A DNA stretch of 64,000 bases from Candidatus Woesearchaeota archaeon (GTDB lineage Archaea > Nanobdellota > Nanobdellia > Woesearchaeales > DSVV01). Where the stretch lies: the NCBI GenBank assembly GCA_016192995.1, contig JACPTB010000002.1, positions 98,283 to 162,282 of the forward strand, given 5' to 3'. Below, piece by piece: positions 4,272 through 59,078 of this stretch. Each line of letters starts with the position of its first letter. Positions within the stretch are counted from its first letter, which is position 1. Under the pieces are notes generated by a model, which made no database searches, was not told where the DNA came from, and saw only the letters and a program-made list of their open reading frames with translations. The position numbers and the translations under genes were made by a program.

Positions 4272-6449
4272 TTGAAATTCTCTATGCAGGATAAAGAGTT
4301 TGATTATCTCCAAGTGTTAAGGGCAGTAGATGAGATTCCGTTTGGTGTAGGAAAGAAACTATTAATCGAATTCTTGCAGGGAAAAGCAAAGACTGAATCC
4401 ATTATAAGAAACAAATTAAACAAAAAACAAACCTTCGGCTCATTAGCCTACGAGGATAATGAGCTTAGTTTAATGATTGATAAACTGCTTCTTAATAACT
4501 TACTGGAGATACAATCGCTTCAAGCAAATAAATTCTGGAAAATAATAGGATTAACTGAAAAAGGAAGAAAAGAACTGCAAAACCCTACTCTGCACAAAAA
4601 GAAGCTTTCAAATAATTTCAAAAACATAAAAACAGTGATTACAGAAAAAGAACGTGAACTATTTCTTGCGCTGGGAGATTTCATAAGTAAATATAACGAC
4701 GAACAAAAAAAAGCAATAATTTCTAACAAAGAACATATCCTCTGCCTTGCTGGAGCAGGAACAGGAAAAACATCAGTTTTAACAAAAAGAATTGAATTTC
4801 TAGTACAATATAAATCTGTTCAACCGCAGAAAATTCTCGCAATTACTTTTACGAGAAAAACGCGTGATGAAATGGTAAAAAGACTGAGCCAAAATCCGCA
4901 ATGCAACAATGTGCAGATAGAAACATTTAATTCATTTTGTGAACGAATGTTAAGAACACATAATAATTATTTGTATGACAAACCAATGGAAGTTATTATG
5001 TACAGGGATAAAATAAAAATTATCATGCAAGCGCTTAATAATTTGCATTTAGATATAAACAAAGCAATTGCAATTTATTTTACTAGCAACCAACAACGTG
5101 GAAAATCAAGCGAGCAATTGGCAAATATTTTCATGCATGACTGTTTTTTTGTGAGAGATTATTTTAAATCAAAAAACAAGCAGTTAAAACATGAAGAATT
5201 TGAAACAGATGAAGCAAAGCATGAACAAGCTGCAGCCATGATGTATGGCGTCTGCAATTATATTGACACTTACATGCAAAAATACGGATTGCGGGATTTT
5301 ACTGACCAGTTGCTTGACACATTAAAACTATTCACCCTTCACAAAGAATTAATCCCCAAATTTGATCACATCATGATTGATGAATATCAAGATATCAACA
5401 CAACACAAATTGAACTGATCAATGACCTTAATCCACCTAATCTGTTCTCTGTTGGCGATCCGCGACAATCTATTTATGGATGGCGAGGATCTGATATCAA
5501 ATTTATTCTTAATTTTGAAGATGCTTATCCAAATGCAGAGATAATTACTTTAACTAAAAACTATCGTTCATCACCAGCAATTGTTGATCTTATCAATAAA
5601 GCTATTGCGCCGATGGGATTAGCAGATCTTGAATCTGCGCAAGCTGGAAATACTAGAAATCCTGAAATAAAAATGTTAAAATGCCAGGATGAAAACGCTG
5701 AATTTTCGTTTGTAATCAATAACATAAAAAATACCACTCTTCCAAGAAATGAAATTTTTGTGTTAGCAAGAACAAACAGGCAATTAAAAGATCTCTCTGA
5801 TCTATTAAAATTACAAGATATTGCTCATGTTGTCCGCACTGATGAAACAAGAAAAAGAGTGTATACTGAACCTCATCAAATAACACTTGCCACAATCCAC
5901 GCAATAAAAGGACTTGAAGCGGAGATGGTATTGATTATAGGTTGCACAGCAGCAAATTTTCCCTGCAGAGCATCAGACCATCCAGTCATTGACATGATCA
6001 AAGTTGATGAATATGATAAAGAGGAAGAAGAAAGAAGATTATTTTATGTTGCCATGAGCAGAGCAAAACAAAACTTGTTTTTAACCTACACCGGCAAAAA
6101 CCCAACCTATTATATTACTCCTGAAATGCTCAAGATAGTACAACTTGATAAAACAATAGTTTCCAACCTAAAATTAGATAGTGAAATGCCTTCAATTTCA
6201 ATAAATACTGCTAAGAACAGGATAAGAAAAACAAATGCCAGTCAAATAGAAGAACGATTAAAACAATGGCGTTGGGAAATTGCGCAACAACACAGCATTC
6301 CTGCATACATGGTAGTCAGCAATAAAACCATTATCGAACTTGCCCAAAAAATGCCTTTAACAACGCAAGAGATGTATGATATTTATGGTCTTGGTCCAAA
6401 CAAAATTATGAGATATGGAGAAGAATTGTTAAAGGTATTGCATAGATAA
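4272..6449 (+). CDS. UvrD/PcrA-type SF1 DNA helicase with N-terminal RQC-like wing and C-terminal HRDC domain
   Basis: Walker A AGAGTGKT, motif II IMIDEYQD, motif IV NYRS, motif V TIHAIKGLE; C-terminal WRWEIAQQHSIPAYMVVSNKTIIELA...GLGPNKIMRYG is HRDC; N-terminal IPFGVGKKLLIEFLQGKAK resembles the RecQ RQC wing. Confidence 0.8.
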   Translation: MKFSMQDKEFDYLQVLRAVDEIPFGVGKKLLIEFLQGKAKTESIIRNKLNKKQTFGSLAYEDNELSLMIDKLLLNNLLEIQSLQANKFWKIIGLTEKGRKELQNPTLHKKKLSNNFKNIKTVITEKERELFLALGDFISKYNDEQKKAIISNKEHILCLAGAGTGKTSVLTKRIEFLVQYKSVQPQKILAITFTRKTRDEMVKRLSQNPQCNNVQIETFNSFCERMLRTHNNYLYDKPMEVIMYRDKIKIIMQALNNLHLDINKAIAIYFTSNQQRGKSSEQLANIFMHDCFFVRDYFKSKNKQLKHEEFETDEAKHEQAAAMMYGVCNYIDTYMQKYGLRDFTDQLLDTLKLFTLHKELIPKFDHIMIDEYQDINTTQIELINDLNPPNLFSVGDPRQSIYGWRGSDIKFILNFEDAYPNAEIITLTKNYRSSPAIVDLINKAIAPMGLADLESAQAGNTRNPEIKMLKCQDENAEFSFVINNIKNTTLPRNEIFVLARTNRQLKDLSDLLKLQDIAHVVRTDETRKRVYTEPHQITLATIHAIKGLEAEMVLIIGCTAANFPCRASDHPVIDMIKVDEYDKEEEERRLFYVAMSRAKQNLFLTYTGKNPTYYITPEMLKIVQLDKTIVSNLKLDSEMPSISINTAKNRIRKTNASQIEERLKQWRWEIAQQHSIPAYMVVSNKTIIELAQKMPLTTQEMYDIYGLGPNKIMRYGEELLKVLHR

Positions 6450-6455
6450 TATTTA

Positions 6456-6632
6456 GAGAACTTTGCAAAATTATGGTTACTGCCAATTTCGTGAGCATTT
6501 TCGAAATATTTATCGGGCAATTTTCGAGGTTCCTTGCCGACAGGCAAGTCTTATAATCCCGATCTTTAGTCGAGATTATATTTATAGAGAGAAAATTGCT
6601 TTGTTTAACAAAGATCTCAATGCGAACTGGCT
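6456..6632 (+). mobile_element. MITE-like repeat, family 1, copy A (degenerate right end, nested insertion in core loop)
   Basis: left end GAGAACTTTGCAAAATTATGGTTACTGCC shared with copies at 43079 and 48447; internal hairpin core 6517-6599 interrupted by ~53-nt insert. Confidence 0.7.
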
Positions 6633-6658
6633 TGCTTCCAGATACTAATTGTAAATGA

Positions 6659-6865
6659 GAAAGAAAAGTTTCACCAAACAAATGTTTTTCATACGCTTCA
6701 GATGCCTTCTCAACAAGAAGAGGTTCAATTAGCAGGGCAAGAGAAGTAAGAAAGTTTAAGCAAATGGGTTATGAAGAATGGGCTAAAGAAAAAGAATATG
6801 GGATGAGATGGGCTACAGAAGGAAAATTCTCTTCTGTTAAGAGAAAATTTAGAAAAAAAATCTAA
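6659..6865 (+). pseudogene. C-terminal remnant of an IS4/IS5-type DDE transposase
   Basis: open frame without start reads ...AREVRKFKQMGYEEWAKEKEYGMRWATEGKFSSVKRKFRKKI*; contains Y-(2)-R-(3)-E-(6)-K signature (Y GM R WAT E GKFSSV K) and RWxxExxFxxxKxxF tail typical of DDE_Tnp_1 C-termini. Confidence 0.5.
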
Positions 6866-7767
6866 ACATCTACTAAACAACCACCGCTTCTCATTGCAGC
6901 TGATAGCTCTTTCCCTTGTTTCACCAATTTTGCACGTTCTTGAAGAGTTGGGACTTGATATAATCTATCCTCGCTTGCCATTTCGTTAAATATTTCCATA
7001 CCCATTTTTAAACCATCATCTTTGCATCTATTAATTACCCTTTGTGGTACTTCACCATCATAGACACGTCTAACAAGTGGATCTGCTGCTGCTTTGAGTG
7101 CTGCCAATCCTTCTTGAGAAAGCAGTAAGTGATAACCTACAACACCAGCATTGCTGCGAAATTCTCCAACTTCTCCTCCACAATCACCAAGAATTTCTGG
7201 TAATCTTTCTTCTTGAAATGATTGAACTTTTCTGTGATATGCTGGTAATCGTGATACATAGTGTGGTGCATTTAATACGACAAGAACATGCTGACGATGT
7301 TTACCATATATTTGTGTGTCTCGTACGCGAGCATTCCAATCTCTATATACTTCATCCATAGGATAGCCTGCTTTTTGTATAGTTTCTTCTGGAACTTGTT
7401 CAGTTAATAGATTACCAGCAGACCCTAAAATACTTCTATTAGTAGCACTCAGCCCTCCTTGTCTTCCAACAATTGCTGCAATTGGATAATCCTGGCCATT
7501 AATAGTATATTGTTTCCTTAACTCTACTCCCTCTAGTTCTGCTATCGCTTTCGTTATCTCTGCTACCAATCCTGCTCCCAATCGAGAAACAAGTTCAGTA
7601 ACTGAAGTTGTCTCCCGCAGAATTTCTAACTCTTCCTCTGTTGCTCTTAGTTCAACCAATATCCTCTTCTTCTTTCCAGCATGATGATTGACATCTTTCA
7701 CAAATGTTCGTACAGAAAGATCTTTTTCAAATATAAGCACGCTGTTATACAGCGCAGGAACAATCAA
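6862..7767 (-). CDS. hypothetical protein, compositionally atypical (A/G/R/V-rich; locally higher GC)
   Basis: 301-aa uninterrupted ORF in an AT-rich background; amino-acid usage unlike neighbouring K/I/N-rich proteins; adjacent to transposase remnant and MITE copy. Confidence 0.4.
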   Translation of the reverse strand: MIVPALYNSVLIFEKDLSVRTFVKDVNHHAGKKKRILVELRATEEELEILRETTSVTELVSRLGAGLVAEITKAIAELEGVELRKQYTINGQDYPIAAIVGRQGGLSATNRSILGSAGNLLTEQVPEETIQKAGYPMDEVYRDWNARVRDTQIYGKHRQHVLVVLNAPHYVSRLPAYHRKVQSFQEERLPEILGDCGGEVGEFRSNAGVVGYHLLLSQEGLAALKAAADPLVRRVYDGEVPQRVINRCKDDGLKMGMEIFNEMASEDRLYQVPTLQERAKLVKQGKELSAAMRSGGCLVDV

Positions 7768-7821
7768 AAATAATCAGTTTAATCATAGATGAAGAAAACT
7801 ATTGAAATTTATAAACATAAC

Positions 7822-11820: not shown

Positions 11821-11864
11821 AAATTTACTTAAGGAATAATACTTTATAAAGATTTCCACAAAAA

Positions 11865-12021
11865 GTATGTAATAAGTCTTGTATGGTTTTAGCGCCAGTT
11901 CAGCTTTTGAAGTGTGTTTCAATTGGATTTTTCTCTCTGGAACTCCGAAAAATCCCCAAAATGTATTTAAGAAGAGCTTCACAAAAGTAGGCGCTAAAAC
12001 CCCAGACGACTTATTACATAC
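11865..12021 (-). mobile_element. MITE-like element, family 2, copy B (157 bp) with TIR and 7-bp TSD
   Basis: TIR GTATGTAATAAGTC / GACTTATTACATAC; flanked by CACAAAA on both sides (11857-11863 and 12022-12028); core hairpin 11925-11955. Confidence 0.75.
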
Positions 12022-12058
12022 CACAAAATATATTAACATTATTAAAAAAAGTAGGAAT

Positions 12059-21532: not shown

Positions 21533-22744
21533 ATGCTGATTATAGAAAGACCCCAAGAGCTTAAAAAGATAACACAAATAAAGAAATGGCTGTTAATTTA
21601 TGGGAGGAGAAAAACAGGGAAAACATATCTCATCTCTACATTTCTCAAGCCAGATGAATATTTTTTTATAAAAAGCAATAAAAATATTTTGACTAAAAAC
21701 AATGAATCCATTTCTTATGAAACATTTATTGAGATAGTAAAACGCAGCCTTGCAAATAACAAAATAGTTGCCGTTGATGAATTTCACCGGTTAGGTACTG
21801 ATTTTTTTGATTTTTTGCATTATACTGAAAAAAAAGGAAAATTAATTCTAATTTCATCTACGCTTTATCTTTCGAAAAAGCTTCTTTCTGAAAAGTCAGC
21901 ATTGCTTGGATTATTCGCAGAAGTAGTTATTGGCCTGATTAGTTTGCAGGACATATTAAAAGCATTGGGAAAATATAATCTTCCAAAAAAAGAGCTGTTT
22001 GAAATTGCAATACTTCTCCGCGAACCGATTGCAATAGATTATTTTGATGAGAGAAAAAAAGCGAGGGAAACAGCAGCAATAATCATCGAGAGTTCTTTAA
22101 GAACAATTCCTGCCTTAATGGGAGAGATTTTTATTGAAGAACAGCGGGAAATTTCAGCAGTTTATGAAGGCATTCTTAGGGGAATAGCAATAGGAAAGAT
22201 AAATTCAGGGGAATTATCAAGCTATTTATTTTCAAAAAGATTATTGATGAAAGATGATCCTAGTATAATACAGCAATATCTTAATAATTTGATGCAATTT
22301 GGGATTATAAAAAGAATAGAATTATTTACCAAGAAGAGATTCGTATATAAACTGACGTCACCGCTGGCAAGAATTTATTATTACAGTGATGAAAAATACA
22401 ATATTTCTGAGAGGAAAATGAATGAAAAGGAACTGCTCGCCATTATAGATGAATTGATGCCAAGAATAGTGGAAGATACCGTCAGGGAAGAGCTTGCTGA
22501 AAAAGAAGGGTTAAGGGAAACAATAGTGGAATCCGCAGATTTCGAAATTGATGGCTGTTTGCTAAAATTTAAAACACCGGAAATAGCATTGGAAGTTAAG
22601 TGGAAAGATAGTACTAAATTAAATATTAATGAGATTAATAATAAATTAAAAGAAATAGACGCAAAAAAAAGAGTGTTATTTGTTTCTGATAAGAAAACAG
22701 TGAAAAACAATGGATTAATAATCATGGATCCAGCAGATTTATAG
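21533..22744 (+). CDS. archaeal ATPase (Arch_ATPase, DUF234 family)
   Basis: Walker A GRRKTGKT, Walker B VAVDEF, C-terminal DUF234-like region. Confidence 0.65.
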   Translation: MLIIERPQELKKITQIKKWLLIYGRRKTGKTYLISTFLKPDEYFFIKSNKNILTKNNESISYETFIEIVKRSLANNKIVAVDEFHRLGTDFFDFLHYTEKKGKLILISSTLYLSKKLLSEKSALLGLFAEVVIGLISLQDILKALGKYNLPKKELFEIAILLREPIAIDYFDERKKARETAAIIIESSLRTIPALMGEIFIEEQREISAVYEGILRGIAIGKINSGELSSYLFSKRLLMKDDPSIIQQYLNNLMQFGIIKRIELFTKKRFVYKLTSPLARIYYYSDEKYNISERKMNEKELLAIIDELMPRIVEDTVREELAEKEGLRETIVESADFEIDGCLLKFKTPEIALEVKWKDSTKLNINEINNKLKEIDAKKRVLFVSDKKTVKNNGLIIMDPADL

Positions 22745-27782: not shown

Positions 27783-28994
27783 TTAAGATATAATTACATT
27801 ATTAATATCTTCAATATCTTTAAACTGTTTCACAAGAATCTTTTTAGAAAATGAGGACTTTTCAAAGAATTCTAACTCTTTTTCTTCAATCTTCTTTTTA
27901 TATTTTACTTCTATGGCAATTGTTTTCTTTTTAATTAGTATGATAAAATCAATCTCTTTATTGTTTTCAAAATAATAGTATAGAGGATACTGTTTAATCT
28001 TAAGATATACTAAATTTTCAACTAAGCTTCCTTTATCTTTAAATCCAACAAAAGCATTTCGTATACCTACATCTGCAATGTACAATTTTTTGGGAGAATG
28101 AATTTTTTCATTAAGAGATTTTGCATACCTATCAATTGAATAAAACAAAAAAGTATCTTTAAAATATTCAAGAAATCTCCGTATGGTATCAACACTTACT
28201 GAAAGCACTCTCGCAAGCTTAGACAGGGTTATTGTTTTGCCAGCTCGTTCACAAAGTAATTGAAACATTTTCTCAACAATATCTTTTTCTTTAATATTAT
28301 GATAGGCAATAATATCTTTATAGAGTATTTGTTCGATAGTATTTTTTAAACAGTTTACATCTTGAGTAAGCACATATTCTGGCATACCTCCTATTTTGAG
28401 ATATTCTTCAAAGTAGCTTTCAAGTAAATACTGTTCTGATGGTAGTATATTGATATTTTTAAATTGAAGAAATTCAGTAAAATCTAACGGAAGAACTTCA
28501 ATGATTAATGACCTGCCAACAAGATAATTATTTTTTGATTTAAGCAATGATGCTGATGATGAAGATGCAAAAAATTTAATATTTTCAAGATCATAAAAGT
28601 TTTTTAATTCCTGCTCAAAAGATGATGATTGTGTTACTTCATCTAAAAAAACATAAATGGGTGTTTCCAAACCAATACTATGCATTTTTCTATATTCTTC
28701 AACCAATTGGTGTATTGTTTTATCTTTAAAAGAAATAAAATCCATAGTCAGATAGAAAATTCTCTTAGGTTCTGTTGTCGAAAGCAAATAGTGGATAAGC
28801 TGCTTTAATAAGGTTGTTTTTCCTACTCTTCGCAGACCTGAGAGAAATACTATTTGTTTTGTTTGAAGCTCTTGTTTCATCAAACTAAGGTATTTTTCCC
28901 TTGTAAGACCTGCAGAAAACTCCTTTTTCTCCCACCAAGGATTCATTAATGAAAATATCTGTTGTAAATCATCCATAAGCATATTAAACCACAT
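27783..28994 (-). CDS. AAA ATPase, COG1373/DUF4143 family
   Basis: Walker A GLRRVGKTTLL, Walker B VFLDEV, C-terminal DUF4143-like. Confidence 0.65.
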   Translation of the reverse strand: MWFNMLMDDLQQIFSLMNPWWEKKEFSAGLTREKYLSLMKQELQTKQIVFLSGLRRVGKTTLLKQLIHYLLSTTEPKRIFYLTMDFISFKDKTIHQLVEEYRKMHSIGLETPIYVFLDEVTQSSSFEQELKNFYDLENIKFFASSSSASLLKSKNNYLVGRSLIIEVLPLDFTEFLQFKNINILPSEQYLLESYFEEYLKIGGMPEYVLTQDVNCLKNTIEQILYKDIIAYHNIKEKDIVEKMFQLLCERAGKTITLSKLARVLSVSVDTIRRFLEYFKDTFLFYSIDRYAKSLNEKIHSPKKLYIADVGIRNAFVGFKDKGSLVENLVYLKIKQYPLYYYFENNKEIDFIILIKKKTIAIEVKYKKKIEEKELEFFEKSSFSKKILVKQFKDIEDINNVIIS

Positions 28995-31862: not shown

Positions 31863-33587
31863 ATGGAAACAGATTTTTATCGAGAGATAATTGAAGCAGT
31901 AAAAAATAAAAAATTAGAACCAGAAAACTTAAACAAAATAAAGCGTGAACTTTCAAAAAAATATAAATTAGGATATATTCCAACAAATATTGAAATTTTA
32001 TTAAGAGCTAAAAAAACTGAGCGCGAGAAATTAAAAGCATTGCAATTAAAACCAACACGTTCTATTTCTGGGGTTGCAAACGTAGCAATTATGTCTGCGC
32101 CATATGCCTGCCCTCCGCAAGCGCAATGCACCTTCTGCCCTGGAGGTCCAAACTCGCAGTTTGGGACAGTTCCTAAATCATATACAGGCCATGAGCCAAG
32201 CACGATGAGAGGAATCAGAAATGACTATGATCCTTATTTACAAGTGTTTAATCGTATTCAGCAATATGTTTTGCTGGGGCATAGCTTTGATAAAATTGAA
32301 TTAATTATTATGGGTGGCACATTTACCAGTTACAGCAAAGTGTATCAGGAAAAGTTTATCAAATACGCTTTAAAAGCAATGAATGATTTTTCTGATCTTT
32401 TTTTTATTGAAAAAAGATTCAATATCGAAAAATTCAAGGAATTTTTCGAGCTGCCTGGAGATATTGAAGACCATGAGCGTGCAGCAAAAATTAAAGAAAA
32501 ATTGCTTAAAATAAAAGGAGACAGCGCGTTAGATAAAGAACAGCAGCGTAATGAAAAAGCAAATATAAAATGTGTTGGATTAACTTTGGAATCACGATCC
32601 GATTATTTGAAAAAAGATTATGCAAATTACATTCTTGAGCTTGGCTGCACAAGAGTTGAAATAGGAATACAGTCAGTGTATGAAAAACCTTTGATCATGG
32701 TAAAAAGGGGTAATACAACGCAAGATAATATAGAAGCAATCCGAGATCTGAAAGATCTCGGATTTAAAATAAACCTTCATTATATGTTAGGATTGCCTGG
32801 TATTAAAGACAAAAAGGAAGATCTTGAAGGTATGAAACAGTTATTTTCTAATCCTGATTACAAACCTGATATGTTAAAGATATATCCATGTATGGTGTTC
32901 AAAGGAACACCATTGTATGAAGAGTATGTTAAAGGAAACTATAAACCATACAGTACTGAAGAAGCTGCTAAAATGATTGCAGCATTCAAGCCTTTTGTCG
33001 GCCGTTATTGCAGAATAATGAGAGTTAACCGTGACATTCCTTCTAAAATGAACGAAGCAGGAATTGATAAAACCAATTTACGTCAGTATGTAGACCAGTT
33101 TAATCATCACTGCAAATGTATAAGATGCAGAGAAGTTGGCCACGTTTATAAAAAAACAGGAAAAAAACCTGAAAAGATAGCATGTATTATTGAAGAATAT
33201 GAAGCAAGCAAAGGAAAAGAATTCTTTATTTCATATGAAGATAAAGAACAAGATATTCTGCTCGGATTTATCAGAATGCGATTCCCGAGCAGAATATTAA
33301 GAAAGGAGATTACTAAAACAAGTGCTTTAATCAGAGAGCTTCATGTGTATGGATCTGCAGTAATGATTGGAAAAAAAGAATCGTTATCCATAACAAGTAT
33401 TGCACAGCATAAAGGTTTAGGAAAAAAACTATTGAAAAATGCGGAAACTATTGCAAAGAAACAGGGAAAAGATAAAATAGTAATAATCGCAGCATTAGGA
33501 ACAAGAGAATACTATCGAAAATTAGGTTATAGAAAAGAAGGACCATATATGATAAAGAAACTTAGAGTTTCTTTATCAGTCGAGTAG
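31863..33587 (+). CDS. elp3: Elp3-family radical SAM / GNAT acetyltransferase
   Basis: CPPQAQCTFCPGGPNSQFGTVPKSYTGHEPSTMRGIRNDYDPY Elp3 signature; C-terminal GNAT QHKGLGKKLL; stop codon TAG spans junction with MITE. Confidence 0.85.
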   Translation: METDFYREIIEAVKNKKLEPENLNKIKRELSKKYKLGYIPTNIEILLRAKKTEREKLKALQLKPTRSISGVANVAIMSAPYACPPQAQCTFCPGGPNSQFGTVPKSYTGHEPSTMRGIRNDYDPYLQVFNRIQQYVLLGHSFDKIELIIMGGTFTSYSKVYQEKFIKYALKAMNDFSDLFFIEKRFNIEKFKEFFELPGDIEDHERAAKIKEKLLKIKGDSALDKEQQRNEKANIKCVGLTLESRSDYLKKDYANYILELGCTRVEIGIQSVYEKPLIMVKRGNTTQDNIEAIRDLKDLGFKINLHYMLGLPGIKDKKEDLEGMKQLFSNPDYKPDMLKIYPCMVFKGTPLYEEYVKGNYKPYSTEEAAKMIAAFKPFVGRYCRIMRVNRDIPSKMNEAGIDKTNLRQYVDQFNHHCKCIRCREVGHVYKKTGKKPEKIACIIEEYEASKGKEFFISYEDKEQDILLGFIRMRFPSRILRKEITKTSALIRELHVYGSAVMIGKKESLSITSIAQHKGLGKKLLKNAETIAKKQGKDKIVIIAALGTREYYRKLGYRKEGPYMIKKLRVSLSVE

Positions 33588-33843
33588 TACGTAATAAGTC
33601 TGGGGTTTTAGCACCTACTTTTGTGAAGCTGTTCTTATATTTGCTGTGAGGATTTTTCGGGGTTCCTTGCCGATAGGCAAGTCTTATAATCCCAGACGCA
33701 AGCCAAATTATGACTCCTTGATTTATAAGAAAAATCCAATTGAAACACACTTCAAAAGCTGAACTGGCGCTACCTGAATCCGAAGGATCTCAGGGATTAA
33801 AAATAGTAATTTTTAATAAAACCATAAAAGACTTATTACGTAC
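33587..33843 (+). mobile_element. MITE-like element, family 2, copy C (257 bp) with TIR and 8-bp TSD
   Basis: TIR GTACGTAATAAGTCT / AGACTTATTACGTAC; direct repeat GTCGAGTA at 33579-33586 and 33844-33851; core hairpin 33650-33737 carrying a nested insert. Confidence 0.85.
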
Positions 33844-33903
33844 GTCGAGTATAAACATTTATATACTAGTAGCTACATGAAATGATTAAGAGGTGGTACT
33901 AGT

Positions 33904-42301: not shown

Positions 42302-43117
42302 ATGTACGAAGAACTATTCCGCGAAATTGGCTTAAGTCCAAACGAAGCTAGAATTTACGAAGCATTGCTCCAAACAGGCGATGCTTCAGTGCAGACTATT
42401 GCAATTAAGGCAAACATTCATCGGAGAAATGCATATGATGCTTTAAGCAGACTTTTAGAAAAAGGATTAATCTCCCAAACCATTCTCAGCAATGAGCAGC
42501 ACTTCAAAGCAACCAATCCAGAACGATTGCTTTCCATGATAAAAGAAAAAGAAGATAAAATAACAAAAGCGCTTCCGGAAATCAAGCAAAAGTTTTTTCA
42601 AAAACAAGAAAAAGAACAAGCATATATCTACAAAGGCATCCAAGGATTCAGAAATTACATGCAGGATATTCTTGATGTTGGCAAAGATGTTTATTGCATT
42701 GGCGCTAAAGGTGGATGGTTTGAACCACGATTAAAAACATTCAGATTTAGATTCTATGAAGAACTCAAAAAAAAGAACGTCAAATGCTACCATTTATTTG
42801 ATGCAGAAATGATGCAACAGCAGAACGAAGCTGAAGGACCTGTACCAGTACATCTCCATGAAGCACGATTTTTACCTGAAAAATATTCCACACACTCAGC
42901 AATTGATATTTTAGATGATCGTGTCATTACTTTCACTGGATTAAATATTAACAAGCTTGATGATGATGTCACTATATTTGTGTTAATAAGCAAAAAACTA
43001 GCTGATGATTACAAAAAATGGTTTTGGCTGATGTGGAATGCAAGTTCCCCAATTGATAAAGGAGAAGAAAAAGCTAAAGAGAACTTTGCAAAATTATGGT
43101 TACTGCCTATTTTGTGA
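42302..43117 (+). CDS. trmB: TrmB-family transcription regulator (paralog 2); last 13 codons MITE-derived
   Basis: REIGLSPNEARIYEALLQTGDASVQTIAIKANIHRRNAYDALSRLLEKGL; C-terminus ENFAKLWLLPIL encoded by MITE copy D. Confidence 0.65.
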   Translation: MYEELFREIGLSPNEARIYEALLQTGDASVQTIAIKANIHRRNAYDALSRLLEKGLISQTILSNEQHFKATNPERLLSMIKEKEDKITKALPEIKQKFFQKQEKEQAYIYKGIQGFRNYMQDILDVGKDVYCIGAKGGWFEPRLKTFRFRFYEELKKKNVKCYHLFDAEMMQQQNEAEGPVPVHLHEARFLPEKYSTHSAIDILDDRVITFTGLNINKLDDDVTIFVLISKKLADDYKKWFWLMWNASSPIDKGEEKAKENFAKLWLLPIL

Positions 43118-43222
43118 GCATTTTCGAAATACTTATCGGGCAATTTTCGGAGTTCCAGAGAGAAAATTGCTTTGTTTAACAAAGATCTCAATGCGAACTG
43201 GCAGTAACCCGAGCTTTGCATT
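43079..43222 (+). mobile_element. MITE-like repeat, family 1, copy D (right end truncated)
   Basis: GAGAACTTTGCAAAATTATGGTTACTGCC ... GGCAGTAACCCGAGCTTTGCA; core hairpin 43140-43170. Confidence 0.75.
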
Positions 43223-43482: not shown

Positions 43483-46400
43483 ATGAATGAACAAAAAATC
43501 CTGCGAATTAAAAAAAGAACTGGTGAATATGTTGGATTTGATCTGAAGAAAATTTCTAATGCTATTTTCAAAGCTGCCCAGGCAGTGGGAGGTTCTGATT
43601 ATAAAATCTCAGAACGATTAGCAGAACAAGTTTTTGACATGCTCAATGAACAGGACTTGAAAGAAGACATACCTTCAGTGGAAGATGTTCAGGATTGCGT
43701 TGAAAAAGTGCTTATTGAAACAGGACATGCAAAAACAGCAAAAGCTTTTATCTTATATAGACAAAAACGTGCAGAAGCACGATTAAAAGCTGATGCATTA
43801 GTTGGTATAAAAGGTTTGGAAGAAAAGCAAGATCCTTTTGGCGTGAATGAAGAATTATTCGGCAGTTCATTAACCAGCCATAATATCAAAGTTACGGTAA
43901 CTGAACCAATTGCAAAAATGTTTACGTATAACAGCAAATTATCCAAGTTAGTGGATAAAAATAAAATTAATGCCTATAGAAAATTATTTTATATGCTCAA
44001 GGATATGCAGAAGGAGGGTTCGTTGCCATTGCATCCTGCAAATGATTATTTAGCAGGCAATGAACTTGCCATGGATATTTACAGGAAAAAATATTATGTC
44101 CACGATCTTGATGATAACCTTATTGAGCAGCGTCCGGAAGATGTATTTGTAAGGCTTGGTTCTTATCTTGCATCTATTGAAGAAGATGAAGACAATCAAG
44201 TGTATTTTGCCCAGGAATTCTATAAAATGCTTTATGAAGGATATTTTGTGCCTGGCGGCAGAGTAATTGCTGGAGCTGGAGATTTATATAGATTAAAAAC
44301 ATTAGCAAATTGCTTTGTTTCAGTGATGGAAGATGATAACATTGAATCTATTTACAAAGCTGCTTTCGAATGTGCGCGAACATATTCATATGGGGGAGGA
44401 ATTGGCGTTGATATTTCTACCCTGCGTCCAAGAGAAGCTGTGGTACATAATGCAGCAAATTTCTCAACAGGCAGCGTTTCATTCATGGAAATCTACTCAT
44501 TAACAACAGGGTTAATTGGTCAAGCTGGAAGGCGAGGCGCATTAATGCTAACTATTGATGTTAAGCATCCTGATATTCTTAATTTTATTAGAGTCAAACA
44601 AGAATCAAATTGGGTGACAAAACAGATTAGGGAGCAATGCAGCTGGTCAGGAAAATTCAACGCTGAACAGCTGGATGCGATTGAAAAACAAGTTCGTGAA
44701 AACACCCAGGTAAGGTTTGCAAATATTAGCATGAAAGTTACTGATGAATTCATGACTGCTGTTGAAGAGCAAAATAAGTATGGAAAGGATAAAATAGTAG
44801 TGTATAAAAAATTTAGCAAATTGATTATTAATAGAGTTAACCAAAGCAAAGAAATGAATTTTGCCTTTGGCATTCCTTCAAAATATTTAGAGAATTATGA
44901 GTTATATAAAGTATTTGAAACCATTGAAGAAGCAAATGAGTTTATACATAAAGAAACAAACAAACAGATCTCCAAGCAATTGCTTGAAAATGTGCAGAAC
45001 AGGGACATTTATGGAGATGTAATTGTACCAGTAGAATCACAAAATTATGATTTAGCAGTGAGATATTCAGGTGATTATTTATTATATTTTAGTTCTGAAC
45101 CTGCAGGAGAAACAAGAAGATTAGTAAAAGCGCGGGATATTTGGGATGAATTTGTTAAAGGTAATTATCAAACAGCTGAGCCAGGATTAATATTCTGGTC
45201 AAGAATGACAAAGTATTCACCTTCTAATTATATAGGGAGACCAATTGCAAGTACAAACCCCTGTATTGCAGGAAACTCACAGGTATCAACAAGTAAAGGA
45301 TTGCAGCAAATAAAAGAGCTTGTTGGTAAAACGCCTCAGATTCTAACTGACAACCGAGTGCCTATACAAGTGAGAGATACTAACGGAAGAATTATGTTGC
45401 TCGAACAAAAACAACAAGGAGTAAGTTTTGACACTATAGAAGCAGCATGGTCATCGGGAATTAAAGAAACCTATAAACTTACCACAAAAAAGGGCTATGA
45501 AATCACTGCAACAGGTGATCATAAGATTATGACTACTGAAGGTTTTAAGCAGTTACATGAACTTACACCTAAAGATAAAATTTTAATCCAAAAAGGAGAA
45601 GGCATGGGAAACAATGATAAGCTATTATCTATTGAAAGAGATGAAATTATCAAAGGAGATAATAATCATATCTATCATTACAAATTCCCCACAACATGGT
45701 CAAAAGAACTTGGGCAATTGCTTGGTTGGACAGTAGGAGATGGATTTATCACTCCTGAACCAGATAATAGACTTGGGTTAGTATTTAGTAAAGAAGATGA
45801 AGACGTGATGAGCCAGTTAAAGAAGTTTATTGAGGAGATATATGGAAAAGAAACAAAACCAAGCATCAGAGAGTCTACAACACAATTAAGATACCATAGT
45901 AAATATTTTTGTGATTTTCTACGTAGATTAGGCATCAAAAGTGTAAAAGCTGAACTTAAGCAAGTTCCGCATAGGATATTTACTGCGCCAAAAGAAGCAG
46001 TAGTAGGATTTTTACAGGGATTGTTTACTGCTGATGGAACTATGGCAGTTGGCGAAAAAGGGAATTATATTCGATTAACTTCTAAGTCAGAAAAGCTTCT
46101 GAAAGAAATACAAATAATACTTATTAACTTAGGGATGTTATCTACAATCTATGAACGCCATCGAACTCCTCAGAAAAAATTTAATTACTATAATGCAGCT
46201 GGAGAATATAAAGAGTACATAACAGATGGGAAATTATGGGAGTTAAGTATAACTAAAGGAAGCTTGCAGCGATTTGTTGAAGAAATTGGGTTTATAGGAA
46301 GTAAACACCAAGAAAGAATAAAAGTATTTCTCACAAAGAAACAATACCAAGAACACTTTTACGATACTATAAAAAGCATAGAACCACAGGGAAAACAAGA

Positions 46401-47730
46401 AGTATTTGATCTAACAGAACCACGAACACATTCTTTTATAGCTAATGGCATTGTTATTTCAAATTGTGGTGAAGTGCCATTAGAAGACGGCGGCGCTTGT
46501 AATCTTGGATCAATTAATCTTTCTCGGTTAGTAATTGATGGTTTTACTGATACTGCAAGAATTAACTGGAACGAACTTGAACGAGTAACAAAGTTGGCTA
46601 CACGATTTTTAGATAATGTTGTTGGCTGGAATATTTCATTGAATGCTCTTGATAAACAACGGAGTGCTGCTGCAGAAACACGAAGACTTGGTTTGGGTGT
46701 TATGGGAATTGCAGATATGTTATTTCAGCTTGGTTTAGAATATGATAGTGAAGAGGGTATAGCAGTTATTGAGAAAGTTTGTCAGGTTATTGCTAATGCA
46801 GGTTATCGTGAATCCGCAGAATTAGCTGAAGAAAAGGGAGCTTCACCAGTATTTGATTATAACAAATACAGCCGCAACCCATTTTTTAAAGAAGCTCTTG
46901 ATGACAATACTAAAGAATTAGTCAAGAAAAAAGGATTGCGGAATATTGCAATACTTTCTATTGCGCCAACAGGAACTATTTCAAATATTGTATTAGGGTA
47001 TAAAGGAGAGCAAAAGAATTATATTGGTGTTAGCGGCGGTGTTGAACCGGTATTTGCAATATTTTACACGAGAAGAAGTGAAAATTTCGGCAACAAACGA
47101 TTTAACATCTTCCATTCAACAGTAAGCGCTTATTTGGATAAAAAAGGGCTCCAGGAAAAAGCGCAGTATGCAACAAGTGAAGACGAACTCCGCCAACTGT
47201 TGCCTGGATGCTTTTTTAGAACTGCCCATTATATTGAGCCTGAAAAAAGAGTTTTAATTCAGGGAGACTGCCAAAAATATACTGACCATAGTATTTCATC
47301 AACCGTCAATTTACCTGAAAGCATAAGCCCTGAAACCATTTCAGAGATTTACATTAAAGCATGGAAATTTGGCTTAAAAGGGATCACTATTTACCGTGAT
47401 GGAAGCAGGTACCCTATTTTAAGCATTCAGCAACAGCAAAGCGCATTTCAAGATTTCAAGAAAAAACAATTCAAATATGTCTCTGATGGAAAAGAAATCA
47501 TAGTAAGAGGCGACCAAGTTATAAAGCTGCCTCAGGGAAAGCTTTCAACGCCGTATCATGCGCAGAGAGAAAACATTCAAGGGATAGTGTTAACCGAGAT
47601 CACTGATCAACCAGCGATAACTGAAGAAGACAGTTCTAATAAAAATGAAGATCATAAAGATGATAACAAAGCTAAAGTCTGCACTATTAGTTTTGAAGAT
47701 GGAAAGCTTGTTAAATCATGCTCAGAGTAA
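43483..47730 (+). CDS. nrdJ: class II (adenosylcobalamin-dependent) ribonucleotide reductase with ATP-cone and intein
   Basis: N-terminal ATP-cone ILRIKKRTGEYVGFDLKKISNAIFKA; catalytic TNP-C...GEVPLEDGGACNLGSINL; C-terminal GLKGITIYRDGSR and terminal Cys pair. Confidence 0.85.
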   Translation: MNEQKILRIKKRTGEYVGFDLKKISNAIFKAAQAVGGSDYKISERLAEQVFDMLNEQDLKEDIPSVEDVQDCVEKVLIETGHAKTAKAFILYRQKRAEARLKADALVGIKGLEEKQDPFGVNEELFGSSLTSHNIKVTVTEPIAKMFTYNSKLSKLVDKNKINAYRKLFYMLKDMQKEGSLPLHPANDYLAGNELAMDIYRKKYYVHDLDDNLIEQRPEDVFVRLGSYLASIEEDEDNQVYFAQEFYKMLYEGYFVPGGRVIAGAGDLYRLKTLANCFVSVMEDDNIESIYKAAFECARTYSYGGGIGVDISTLRPREAVVHNAANFSTGSVSFMEIYSLTTGLIGQAGRRGALMLTIDVKHPDILNFIRVKQESNWVTKQIREQCSWSGKFNAEQLDAIEKQVRENTQVRFANISMKVTDEFMTAVEEQNKYGKDKIVVYKKFSKLIINRVNQSKEMNFAFGIPSKYLENYELYKVFETIEEANEFIHKETNKQISKQLLENVQNRDIYGDVIVPVESQNYDLAVRYSGDYLLYFSSEPAGETRRLVKARDIWDEFVKGNYQTAEPGLIFWSRMTKYSPSNYIGRPIASTNPCIAGNSQVSTSKGLQQIKELVGKTPQILTDNRVPIQVRDTNGRIMLLEQKQQGVSFDTIEAAWSSGIKETYKLTTKKGYEITATGDHKIMTTEGFKQLHELTPKDKILIQKGEGMGNNDKLLSIERDEIIKGDNNHIYHYKFPTTWSKELGQLLGWTVGDGFITPEPDNRLGLVFSKEDEDVMSQLKKFIEEIYGKETKPSIRESTTQLRYHSKYFCDFLRRLGIKSVKAELKQVPHRIFTAPKEAVVGFLQGLFTADGTMAVGEKGNYIRLTSKSEKLLKEIQIILINLGMLSTIYERHRTPQKKFNYYNAAGEYKEYITDGKLWELSITKGSLQRFVEEIGFIGSKHQERIKVFLTKKQYQEHFYDTIKSIEPQGKQEVFDLTEPRTHSFIANGIVISNCGEVPLEDGGACNLGSINLSRLVIDGFTDTARINWNELERVTKLATRFLDNVVGWNISLNALDKQRSAAAETRRLGLGVMGIADMLFQLGLEYDSEEGIAVIEKVCQVIANAGYRESAELAEEKGASPVFDYNKYSRNPFFKEALDDNTKELVKKKGLRNIAILSIAPTGTISNIVLGYKGEQKNYIGVSGGVEPVFAIFYTRRSENFGNKRFNIFHSTVSAYLDKKGLQEKAQYATSEDELRQLLPGCFFRTAHYIEPEKRVLIQGDCQKYTDHSISSTVNLPESISPETISEIYIKAWKFGLKGITIYRDGSRYPILSIQQQQSAFQDFKKKQFKYVSDGKEIIVRGDQVIKLPQGKLSTPYHAQRENIQGIVLTEITDQPAITEEDSSNKNEDHKDDNKAKVCTISFEDGKLVKSCSE
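45262..46464 (+). other. intein (401 aa) with LAGLIDADG homing-endonuclease domain, inserted before catalytic Cys of nrdJ
   Basis: N-terminal splice CIAGNS, block B TGDHKIMT, LAGLIDADG motifs LLGWTVGDGF and VVGFLQGLFTADG, C-terminal HSFIANGIVISN followed by extein Cys. Confidence 0.8.
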
Positions 47731-47828
47731 GAATTTCTTTTCCTTTTTTATTATCACTTGATGATTAAGGATATTTATTAATAAGTAGAGCTTATTAGAT
47801 ACAAGAACTTTACAAAATAGGTACTATT

Positions 47829-48446: not shown

Positions 48447-48608
48447 GAGAACTTTGCAAAATCATGGTTACTGCCTATTTTGTGAGCATTTTCGAAATAC
48501 TTATCGAGCAATTTTCGGAGTTCCAGAGAGAAAATTGCTTTGTTAAAAAGATATCTCAATGCGAACCGGCAGTAACCCGAGCTTTGCGAGTATTTTGCAA
48601 AGTTCTCC
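48447..48608 (+). mobile_element. MITE-like repeat, family 1, copy E (162 bp, intact palindrome)
   Basis: 16-bp perfect TIR GAGAACTTTGCAAAAT / ATTTTGCAAAGTTCTC, inner IR GGTTACTGCC / GGCAGTAACC; core hairpin 48508-48538. Confidence 0.8.
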
Positions 48609-50330: not shown

Positions 50331-52361
50331 ATGCCCCTTGAAAAAGTCATTAAACGGAATGGTGAAACTGTAGTTTTTGATCCAAAAAAGATCACAGATG
50401 CATTGTACAAAGCAGCGCAAGCTATTGGAGGAACTGATGAAGAGCTCTCTAAAGCATTAACAAAAAAGATTGTAGCAAAGATAGAAGAATTATTTCCTGA
50501 CAAAATCCCCCATGTTGAAGATGTTCAGGATGTTGTTGAGCGTGTTTTAATAGAAGACAATCATGTAAAAACAGCAAAAGCATATATTTTGTATAGGGAA
50601 CGCCAAAAAAATATCCGGGAGGTAAAACAGTCATTAGTAGGAGGATATGTTGATAAGCGCTTTACTATTAATGCATTAAAAATTCTCAAAGAACGATTAT
50701 TAATGAAAAAAGAAGATGGCGCTGTTGAAACGCCTGAAGATATGTTTAGAAGAGTAGCAAAAGAAATAGCAAAAGCAGATAAACAATATGATAATGAGCC
50801 AAACCTGAAAGAAACTGAAGATAAGTTTTTCGAGTGTTTAAACAAGCTTGATTTTTTGCCAAACTCGCCCTGCTTAATGAACGCAGGAACCAAAAATCAG
50901 CAGTTAATTTCATGCTATGTCCTACCAATTGAAGACAGCACTGAAAGTATTTATACAACATTAAAAAATGCTGCAATGGTGCATCGTACAGGTTCAGGAA
51001 CAGGCTTTTCTTTTTCCAATTTAAGACCAAAAGAAGATACGATCGATGATTCTCGTGGATTTTCAGCAGGGCCAATTCCATTTATGCATGTCTATGATAA
51101 ATCAACAGAAATAATCAAGAAAACTGGTTTAAGGCGTGGCGCAAACATGGCAGTGTTGCGTGTTGATCACCCCAATATCCTCGATTTTATTACCGCAAAA
51201 GAAAATCCCCATCACTTGAGAAACTTCAACATCTCTGTTGGCATTACAAAAGAATTTATGGATGCATTAGACAACAGAAAACGATATCCATTAATTAATC
51301 CGCGAACAAAGCAGGAAGTTCGTTTATTGCCTGCTAAAGAGGTCTTTGATTTAATTGCAACAATGTCGTGGAAAAATGGTGAGCCAGGAGTTATTTTCCT
51401 TGATACTATTAATGAGAAGAACCCTGTTCCTGAACTTGGTGAAATAAAAACAACCTCTGCCTGCGGAGAAGTGCCTTTGCTTGAATATGAAGCATGCCCG
51501 CTTGGCTCAATAAACTTATCTAATATGGTGCAAGGAGGCAGGGTCAATTTAGCTGCATTGCGGGACACTGCGTGGATTGCAGTGCATTTTCTTGATAATG
51601 TTATTGATGTAAATAAATACACCTTAAAAGACAGTGAAAAAATAACTAATGATAATAGAAAAATAGGAGTTGGAGTTATGGGTTTTGCAGATATGCTGTA
51701 TCAGTTAGGGGTTCCTTATAATAGTGAAGAAGCAATAAAAGTAGCAGAAAGAATCATGAAATTTATTCGTGATGAAGCAAGATTAGCTTCAGAAGCTCTA
51801 GCAAAAAAAAGAGGAGTATTTGCAAATTATGAAAAAAGCATATATGCAAAAAAAGGAATAAAGCAAAGAAATGCGACAACAACTGCTATTGCGCCAACAG
51901 GAACAATCTCATTAATTGCTGATTGTTCTTCAGGCATTGAACCGAATTTCGCTTTAAGTTACATGAAAAAAATCACCGGTGGGGATGAGTTATTATATGT
52001 TAATAAGCATTTAAAAAGCGAATTATTGAAAAGAGAGATTTATTCTGAAGATTTAATGAAAGAAATTGCATCAAAAGGATCACTCCAATCATTTTTGGAT
52101 TTAGCATCAGAAATCAGAAAAGTGTTTGTTATTAGCCATGAAATACCTGCAGAATATCATGTATTAATCCAAGCAGCATTTCAAAAATATTGCGATAATG
52201 CAGTTTCAAAGAGCGTTAATTTAGAGTACACTTCAAGCAAAGAAGATGTCGTTAAAACCTTCAAGCTTGCTTACAAACTAGGGTGTAAAGGAATAACCAT
52301 TTATCGAGATAGAAGCAGAGAAGATCAGATTTTAACACTATTAGGGGGAGAAGCAATATGA
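50331..52361 (+). CDS. nrdJ: class II ribonucleotide reductase (short paralog, no intein)
   Basis: ATP-cone VIKRNGETVVFDPKKITDALYKA; TSACGEVPLLEYEACPLGSINL; GCKGITIYRDRSR. Confidence 0.8.
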   Translation: MPLEKVIKRNGETVVFDPKKITDALYKAAQAIGGTDEELSKALTKKIVAKIEELFPDKIPHVEDVQDVVERVLIEDNHVKTAKAYILYRERQKNIREVKQSLVGGYVDKRFTINALKILKERLLMKKEDGAVETPEDMFRRVAKEIAKADKQYDNEPNLKETEDKFFECLNKLDFLPNSPCLMNAGTKNQQLISCYVLPIEDSTESIYTTLKNAAMVHRTGSGTGFSFSNLRPKEDTIDDSRGFSAGPIPFMHVYDKSTEIIKKTGLRRGANMAVLRVDHPNILDFITAKENPHHLRNFNISVGITKEFMDALDNRKRYPLINPRTKQEVRLLPAKEVFDLIATMSWKNGEPGVIFLDTINEKNPVPELGEIKTTSACGEVPLLEYEACPLGSINLSNMVQGGRVNLAALRDTAWIAVHFLDNVIDVNKYTLKDSEKITNDNRKIGVGVMGFADMLYQLGVPYNSEEAIKVAERIMKFIRDEARLASEALAKKRGVFANYEKSIYAKKGIKQRNATTTAIAPTGTISLIADCSSGIEPNFALSYMKKITGGDELLYVNKHLKSELLKREIYSEDLMKEIASKGSLQSFLDLASEIRKVFVISHEIPAEYHVLIQAAFQKYCDNAVSKSVNLEYTSSKEDVVKTFKLAYKLGCKGITIYRDRSREDQILTLLGGEAI

Positions 52362-57608: not shown

Positions 57609-57766
57609 CTCAGGTGAAAATGTAGTTTTTGGCATCTTTTGGTGAAGCTCTTCTTAATTTTACCTTGAGGATTTTTCGGAGTGCCAGAGAGAAAAATCCA
57701 ATCGAAATACTCTTCAAGAGCTGAACTGATGCCAAAACCGAGGCTATGCCGAGATTTTCACCTGAG
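57609..57766 (+). mobile_element. MITE-like element, family 2 variant, copy F (158 bp)
   Basis: 13-bp TIR CTCAGGTGAAAAT / ATTTTCACCTGAG; core hairpin 57669-57699 GGATTTTTCGGAGTGCCAGAGAGAAAAATCC. Confidence 0.75.
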
Positions 57767-58312: not shown

Positions 58313-58353
58313 AAGAAGAGCTTCACAAAATAGGCGCTAAAAACTACATTTTC
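58313..58353 (-). repeat. solo fragment of family-2 MITE arm (copy G)
   Basis: reverse complement GAAAATGTAGTTTTTAGCGCCTATTTTGTGAAGCTCTTCTTCC matches left arm of copy F. Confidence 0.6.
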
Positions 58354-58361
58354 TAAAGAAC

Positions 58362-59078
58362 CTAAGGTCGTTGTTGTTGCTTCATATCCGCAGTAATTCT
58401 GCTCAATTCATTAACATTTTCTGTCATAATAGGCAATACTTTCTGAAATACTTTTTCAAGCGCTTGGATATCAGACCCAATAGTAGTTAAATTTCTATCA
58501 TAATCTCCTATTCTACCAAGAACACCTTTATGAAGGGTATCAAATTGTTTTTGAAGATCAACAAATTGCTGTTCAATTTTCAAAATCCTTCCTTCAGTCC
58601 TATCTTTCCAGTCAATAATTTTATTGATGCTTTTAACAATTTCATTCCATTTCTCATCAATTATTGCTTCTGCTATCTCTTCAATGCGCTCTAAGCCTGG
58701 AATCTGGGGAGAACCTGACTGACTGCCTATGTTCCCCATGCTTTGAGCATCATTATAATCCTGATTCTGCCCATAATCTTGAGCAATTGATTGAATGTTA
58801 TTTCCTGGAAATTGCTTATTTTCTTCAGGAAGCATTTCATTTGCCATCATACCTGGATTTGGTCCCATACCAACACCTGTCTTAATTTCAGCTTGATTCA
58901 TCGCGTCAAAAATATCAGTCATATCAACACCTTCACGCTGTAAGGTGTCAATGATTTGACTATTCCCTAATCCTTTTCGTTTTAAATCCAATACTCTATC
59001 AGTAGGAGGTCCCTTTACACGAGGAGGTCCTAATTGAGGATTTGCTTCCTCTTTTTTACCAAAACTAAAGAGAGGCAT
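58362..59078 (-). CDS. hypothetical protein with low-complexity middle and C-terminal coiled coil
   Basis: 238 aa; last gene of a four-gene minus-strand cluster. Confidence 0.4.
   Translation of the reverse strand: MPLFSFGKKEEANPQLGPPRVKGPPTDRVLDLKRKGLGNSQIIDTLQREGVDMTDIFDAMNQAEIKTGVGMGPNPGMMANEMLPEENKQFPGNNIQSIAQDYGQNQDYNDAQSMGNIGSQSGSPQIPGLERIEEIAEAIIDEKWNEIVKSINKIIDWKDRTEGRILKIEQQFVDLQKQFDTLHKGVLGRIGDYDRNLTTIGSDIQALEKVFQKVLPIMTENVNELSRITADMKQQQRP

Follow-up and report, generated by a model that had tools for sequence, protein, structure and literature searches.

Does a short DNA segment that recurs at the same place inside two different repeat elements of an archaeal genome represent a mobile unit of its own, or was it copied from one repeat to the other? 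The question arises in a 64-kb stretch of DNA, analyzed as a whole and referred to here as the window, which carries six copies and one fragment of a MITE. The organism is a DPANN archaeon: identical proteins are named 'Candidatus Woesearchaeota archaeon' at NCBI, and the genes of the window are archaeal housekeeping genes (ELP3, TrmB, PPDK, GAPDH, PGK and an intein-bearing RNR). In two of the MITEs, A and C, the central loop is interrupted by a segment that we call the module. Its first 27 nt, TTGCCGAYAGGCAAGTCTTATAATCCC, have two occurrences in the window, both on the + strand, at 6534-6560 and 33667-33693. The two occurrences are identical at 26 of 27 positions, the sole difference being a C/T position, and there is no further occurrence in the window with three mismatches allowed. 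The chance expectation is 0, as none of 100 dinucleotide-preserving shuffles matched with three mismatches permitted. Both copies have the same orientation and begin at the base after GGTTCC, which lies in the apical loop of a hairpin designated P3. The stem strands of P3 around the module are GCAATTTTC and GAAAATTGC in MITE A and GGATTTTTC and GAAAAATCC in MITE C. This bears out the original observation of the same 27-nt start at the same loop site in both elements.

The module has conserved ends and an unconserved middle. The left 27 nt match at 96%, and the right ~7-12 nt share the form GATT..TTTAT, while the middles, 13 nt in A versus ~26 nt in C, are unalignable. In copy 1, the 27-mer is followed by the variable middle at 6561-6573 and a tail, GATTATATTTAT, at 6574-6585; in copy 2, it is followed by a middle unrelated to that of copy 1 and by the tail GATTTAT. 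Since A-AGAAAAATCC comes after copy 2, 3 nt of the host AG tract have been lost in MITE C, and a MAFFT alignment offers the alternative of a 57-nt insert with substitutions. The insert lengths first given, ~53 and 63 nt, are thus adjusted to 52 nt in A and 60 nt (alternatively 57) in C. The module is ORF-less. A hairpin, C-TTGCC-GAYA-GGCAA-G, is predicted in both copies, as had been proposed, and so is a second one, TCTTATAATC...GATT(A)TA. P3 plus insert folds with z = -3.2 and -2.3 in the two copies. The segments TCTTATAATC and GATTATA had also been taken for short inverted ends of the insert, but they lie inside the module, in internal or subterminal positions, and are not terminal inverted repeats. 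Coordinates are collected in Table 1.

Table 1. Module copies, predicted module hairpins, MITE copies and a further insertion in the window
Feature	Position	Strand	Remarks
Module copy 1	6534..6585	+	52 nt, within MITE A
Module copy 2	33667..33726	+	60 nt, within MITE C
Module hairpin 1, CTTGCC-GACA-GGCAAG	6533..6548	+	Predicted in MFE and centroid folds; first C is the last host base
Module hairpin 2, TATAATC...GATTATA, inner CGA/TCG stem	6552..6580	+	Predicted fold
MITE A, family 1, carries module	6454..6631	+	3' truncated after GAACTGGC; 95% identical to B
MITE C, family 2, carries module and second insertion	33587..33843	+	Terminal repeats and target duplication
Second, unrelated 45-nt insertion in MITE C	33773..33817	+	3' strand of helix P1; absent from E and the L049 copy
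MITE E, insert-less, close to C	11865..12021	-	Target duplication 11857-11864 and 12022-12029
MITE B, insert-less, 3' truncated	43077..43219	+	Unoccupied site between 43156 and 43157
MITE B', complete, insert-less	48447..48607	+	Unoccupied site between 48524 and 48525
MITE D, complete, insert-less	57609..57766	+	Loop GGAGTGCCAGAGA; unoccupied site between 57685 and 57686
Seventh MITE copy, 5' fragment only	58313..58364	-	Fragment

The elements that host the module are genuine MITEs, as indicated by their terminal inverted repeats, their 8-bp target duplications and an empty site for one of them. They are 160-270 nt long, multi-copy and without a transposase ORF. The inverted terminal pairs are GTAYGTAATAAGTC in C and E, GAGAACTTTGCAAAAT in B' and CTCAGGTGAAAAT in D, and GGCGGCATTGAAAAGT forms inverted pairs in other MAGs. 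In MITE C, the terminal inverted repeats GTACGTAATAAGTC lie at 33587-33600 and 33830-33843, and are flanked by the target duplication GTCGAGTA (33579-33586 and 33844-33851). Further 8-bp duplications are wTTTTGTG at E, CAATAAAA at locus L023 and ATATTTTA at L025, with another at L007; no convincing one was found at B' or D. The terminal repeats, of GGCTCT/GGCGGC type, and the 8-bp duplication presumably resemble those of ISL3. A lone terminal-repeat-like sequence, AAGAACTTTACAAAAT, is found at 47803-47818, just upstream of a CobA-like gene.

The empty site is that of E. In a relative (L052, from the genome GCA_053531935.1), the spacer between the CarS and glycosyltransferase genes reads CCACAAAGTATATT with no element, and in the window E is present flanked by CACAAAAw. 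The filled site spans 11857-12029 of the window and the empty site about 11385-11400 of L052, with the 8-bp duplication. The absence of E from this relative shows recent MITE mobility in the lineage. MITE A is likewise missing from the orthologous helicase-GAPDH spacer of L052. That spacer is 72 nt in the relative (L052 7170-7241), and the window has ~1.35 kb extra at 6450-7800, made up of the truncated MITE A and an orphan 301-aa ORF (6862-7767, -) with no Pfam/NCBIfam match. With 6-7 copies in 64 kb, the MITE density is ~100 copies per Mb, which matches the 105 MITEs/Mb published for a Woesearchaea genome (PMC11602168).

The core loop pattern is found at 26 loci in about 13 Woesearchaeota/Nanoarchaeota MAGs, several of them mislabelled Methanosarcinales; the invariance of the loop among these 26 loci is partly ascertainment because the search pattern itself required the loop. 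In the alignment of the 26 copies, four nested helices (P0-P3) are paired in 91.6% of cells, and compensatory change occurs at 31 of 41 pairs versus 13-16 in slid controls. The host elements share with Correia, ERIC, RUP and RPE MITEs their terminal inverted repeats, fixed 8-bp duplication, intergenic location, high copy number and long imperfect palindrome. Unlike those types, they keep their internal helices and 21-nt loop across subfamilies with different terminal repeats and across about 13 DPANN MAGs. No published description of this MITE family was found. Rfam gave no match for the whole window at gathering thresholds, and when A, B', C and L023 were scanned permissively, the matches were at chance level only. 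As other identities for the element, we rejected a C/D-box or H/ACA sRNA (box motifs absent), a tRNA-like element (none by ARAGORN), a hammerhead or hairpin ribozyme (core motifs absent), a promoter module (wrong spacing of the -35/-10-like motifs, and an archaeal host) and an integron attC site (a multi-helix element beside housekeeping genes).

Five of the six MITE copies adjoin the 3' end of a same-strand gene. The TrmB-like ORF (42302-43117) extends 40 nt into MITE B, and its stop codon is the TGA of a GTGA motif. The ELP3 stop codon (33579-33587) falls at the junction of the target duplication and terminal repeat of C, and the C-terminus is 7 residues longer than in the relative L051. Judging from these two reading frames, the MITEs reshape gene ends.

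The sequence relationships among the copies indicate the order of events. Identity to A is 95% for B and 90% for B', and these three group at 90-95%; C is 88-91% identical to E, and A and C are only ~75% alike. A and C thus belong to two families, as had been claimed, and they do not group together as a simple shared ancestor would have it, each being nearest to a module-less copy. Since A and C each have a closer module-less relative, the module is derived and not ancestral. With a slash marking the insertion point, B and B' read GTTCC/AGAGAG, and E and a copy in the relative GCA_053531935.1 (L049) read GTTCC/AGAGAGAAAAATCC, all without the module. At P3, the uninterrupted copies have TTTTC-GGAGTKCCAGAGA-GAAAA, and the insert-less loop is the widespread state, represented by 26 copies in about 13 DPANN MAGs.

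The L049 copy lies just downstream of ELP3, whose product is 83% identical, and it is of the same subfamily and orientation as C. Its loop is intact, reading TTTTCGGGGTTCC/AGAGAGAAAAATCC, and it is also intact at GGCGCTA/AAAC, so that it is without both of the insertions of C. The left flank is partly alignable, and the contig ends within the element; it is probably the ortholog of C. The copy indicates that the loop G of GGTTCC is older than the insertion in the C lineage. In a second relative (ELP3 86% identical), only a right-end MITE remnant is present, at the same junction, and therefore the MITE at the C locus is old. It is clear that the module is a real secondary insertion, derived, into resident MITEs. 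The multi-step event originally proposed, by site-specific insertion or gene conversion, is in accord with hosts that are true MITEs and have insert-less closer relatives.

The placement of the module is based on one MAG assembly. All of the independent Logan short-read contigs of the organism (L001-L005, L045-L048, L053-L055) end 27-47 nt inside a MITE; because they all break at MITE edges, the placement rests on this single assembly. These MITE repeats fragment assemblies of the organism's genome.

Two independent random hits on one bond of a ~170-nt element have a probability of about 1 in 170. Since that is unlikely, the event was targeted or homology-driven. The explanation that we tentatively favor, at somewhat short of an even chance, is a tiny non-autonomous element that targets the loop and inserted twice. 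Already resident MITEs of two subfamilies would have been entered at least twice by the module, each time at the one bond GGTTCC^AGAG, where the apical loop of P3 is single-stranded. The module would belong to a small group of non-autonomous mini-elements with conserved ends and a free middle, mobilized in trans by a recombinase that would recognize the loop sequence or the hairpin. We infer that the two insertions were independent, that insertion was targeted and that a trans-acting enzyme exists.

Several features argue for such an element. First, the junction is identical in hosts that are only ~75% alike; given that level of similarity, the probability of at least 26 matches in the 27-mer (p = 0.75) is 0.004. 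Second, conserved ends with a free middle would be expected of an end-dependent mobile element and not of a single recent conversion tract. Third, B, B', E and D, together with the probable ortholog of C in L049, are insert-less. Fourth, the GGTTCC loop variant is present in both occupied loops, and all four empty loops in the window read AGTKCC. The MITEs have been recently mobile here, E being absent from a relative, and other two-hairpin inserts of ~45-52 nt exist elsewhere in the same MITE family. A precedent exists in palindromic REP repeats, which several families of insertion sequences enter at one fixed position (PMC1525189).

Against it stand the number of copies, n=2, with no solo or third copy in the places searched, and the placement from one assembly. 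No known transposon has the end architecture of the module, and no transposase/HUH gene was found among the scanned window ORFs. The middle of module A and an insert in another MAG (L022) are only weakly similar (BLAST E = 0.11). Finally, two of the five differences between A and B fall in the 4 nt beside the module (CGAGG versus CGGAG), and these two module-side changes look like a co-transferred flank, as conversion gives.

The searches for further copies were broad. Fuzzy and BLAST-short searches of the window and ~309 kb of DPANN loci gave no solo or diverged module copies beyond the two known. The exact module and core loop are not in IMG/VR viral contigs, a 23-mer of the module is not in JGI metagenomes, and phage and plasmid collections gave no module match. 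A gapped pattern seeking a 35-65-nt interruption at the same loop site gave 13 metagenome matches, all by chance and outside MITEs. A protein-level search with spurious ORFs reading through the module found nothing. For the enzyme, no transposase or HUH (Y1) gene was found among 28 distinct window ORFs scanned with Pfam and/or NCBIfam, within the 64 kb only.

The ends of the module are as follows. There are no terminal inverted repeats, the ends TTGCCGA... and ...ATTTAT not being reverse complements. There is no target duplication, as GTTCC/AGAGAG becomes GTTCC[module]AGAGAG with no base doubled. There is no duplicated core at the junctions, as CC/TT and AT/AG share no dinucleotide. The 5' junction is 8 nt from the P3 stem and right at the foot of the module's own hairpin.

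These ends set the module apart from the systems to which it might be compared. Nested MITEs, with one MITE inside another, are well known in plants and are likewise non-autonomous elements in non-autonomous elements that evolve stepwise. However, each nested MITE retains terminal inverted repeats and a target duplication of its own; the module has neither, and it is rejected as a nested MITE. The elements derived from IS200/IS605 called PATEs and the REP/RAYT systems (Y1 HUH) are free of terminal inverted repeats and target duplications; they insert in fixed orientation on the 3' side of a short specific motif and have hairpins near their ends. The module is like them in having neither repeats nor duplication, in lying 3' of a short motif, GGTTCC, and in its one orientation (n=2), and the presumed target would be single-stranded hairpin-loop DNA. 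The hairpins differ: that of IS608 is ~19 nt inside the end, whereas the left hairpin of the module is at the junction itself and the right end has no similar counterpart. The module is also several times shorter than known PATEs, and no Y1 gene is among the scanned window ORFs. The resemblance to IS200/IS605-type elements is therefore only in negative features and in location 3' of a fixed motif, and the hairpin geometry is unfitting. A link between REP and Y1 has been described (PMC3333891). Like the insertion sequences that target REP/BIME (IS1397 and ISKpn1 of IS3; IS621, ISPpu9, ISPpu10 and ISPa11 of IS110), the module occupies a fixed position in a short repeated palindrome, and like the IS110 members it has no terminal inverted repeats. 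Those elements, however, are 1-2-kb, autonomous and transposase-encoding, in contrast to a module of 52-60 nt with no ORF, and their hosts are bacterial REPs, not an archaeal MITE of 160-170 nt. An IS110-type element is rejected because no core dinucleotide is repeated at both module junctions. Among known transposon end architectures, we found none that the module fits.

Gene conversion is a close rival of targeted insertion, although we consider it somewhat unlikely in itself. It would begin with one original insertion, or with an 'extended-P3' MITE subfamily, and the module would then have spread by short-patch ectopic gene conversion or template switching, with the loop flanks TTTTCGRGGTTCC and AGAGAGAAAA as homology. 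The high MITE density is in its favor, and the identical site is explained without a targeting enzyme. Since the flanks GGTTCC and AGAGAGAAAA are identical in both families, the ends of a conversion tract would be invisible. The loops of A and its sister B differ just at the two module-side bases, GAGG versus GGAG, and other copies have GAGG as a natural allele. However, modules that are 96% identical over 27 nt with unrelated middles require at least two donor alleles, and conversion would not account for the stronger conservation of the ends relative to the middle. At 9 nt from the module, the P3 stems are wholly of the host-subfamily type on both sides, and the flank in C is the same as that of the L049 copy.

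A second rival takes the module as an addition to the MITE hairpin that was selected for its structure or function and would turn the P3 loop into a three-way junction used by an RNA or by a DNA-binding factor; the 27-mer would then have been kept by purifying selection and not be the mark of recent transfer. The host structure is indeed strongly maintained (the 41 pairs described above), the module brings two extra predicted hairpins and its AAUCCC can pair with the host GGGGUU or GAGGUU, and most of the MITE copies abut same-strand gene 3' ends. Nevertheless, the module is in none of the 26 other copies from about 13 MAGs, and the interrupted loops found in metagenomes were chance matches. 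No Rfam family matches, and A is truncated and evidently dead. Selection would also leave the arrival of the same sequence in two lineages unexplained, and we regard this reading as decidedly unlikely. Origin as an archaeal bulge-helix-bulge intron, or as some other insertion made at the RNA level and copied back into DNA, is scarcely credible: a fixed position in a structured element without target duplication would suit it, and archaeal tRNAs have homologous introns at shared positions, but in the predicted folds the two hairpins are independent and neither junction shows the arrangement of 3-nt bulge, 4-bp helix and 3-nt bulge, the 5' junction would lie at the foot of an intron-internal hairpin and Rfam scans give no evidence of the MITE as an RNA gene.

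Returning to the twice-inserted element that we favor, a broader proposal is that the module belongs to an undescribed class of mobile units of DPANN archaea, ~50 nt, two-hairpin and ORF-less, whose targets are the single-stranded hairpin loops of a structurally conserved MITE superfamily and whose integration involves neither terminal inverted repeats nor a target duplication. We regard this as unlikely. If it were true, few known transposable units would be smaller, and a trans-acting hairpin- or loop-specific recombinase would be implied. If the module is truly mobile, then site- and structure-specific recombination would operate in reduced DPANN genomes on a target a few nucleotides long, and the abundant MITEs of DPANN would evolve by gaining small hairpin modules. 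With n=2 copies, the finding is a small, well-documented piece of the natural history of repeat elements. The host MITE superfamily, with its four helices and 21-nt loop kept in about 13 MAGs while the terminal repeats change, may be the more useful lead.

Other insertions are seen in the same MITE family. The second insertion in MITE C has two hairpins, CCTGA..TCAGG and ATTAAAAAT-AGTA-ATTTTTAAT, with a possible TA duplication at its junctions. In other DPANN MAGs, two-hairpin insertions of ~50 nt are found at L022 2843-2894 and L030 279-329. Another element of the MAG that holds L022 (L015, about 4283-4310) repeats the L022 hairpin, GCACAGC-GAGGC-TTT-GCCTC-GATTGTG, with three compensatory pairs. 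The L022 insert and the middle of module A have CCCRATCT..AGTCGAGAT in common, a weak match at the E value given above. The same terminal repeats or outer helices also occur with other cargo: L009 4797-5113 has a GC-rich 288-nt core, and L026 2768-3024 and L015 4212-4373 have an inner domain with TCCCTTACGGG in common. Since the outer parts are shared and the cargo differs, the outer scaffold carries interchangeable inner modules.

Two further kinds of repetition are found among the genes. There are two ribonucleotide reductase large-subunit paralogs (43483-47730 and 50331-52361), the first of which (1415 aa) contains an intein that includes a homing-endonuclease domain of the LAGLIDADG type. 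Within ~35 kb there are also three paralogous genes for AAA_14 (DUF4143-type) ATPases, at 21533-22744, 27783-28994 and L047 3030-4082.
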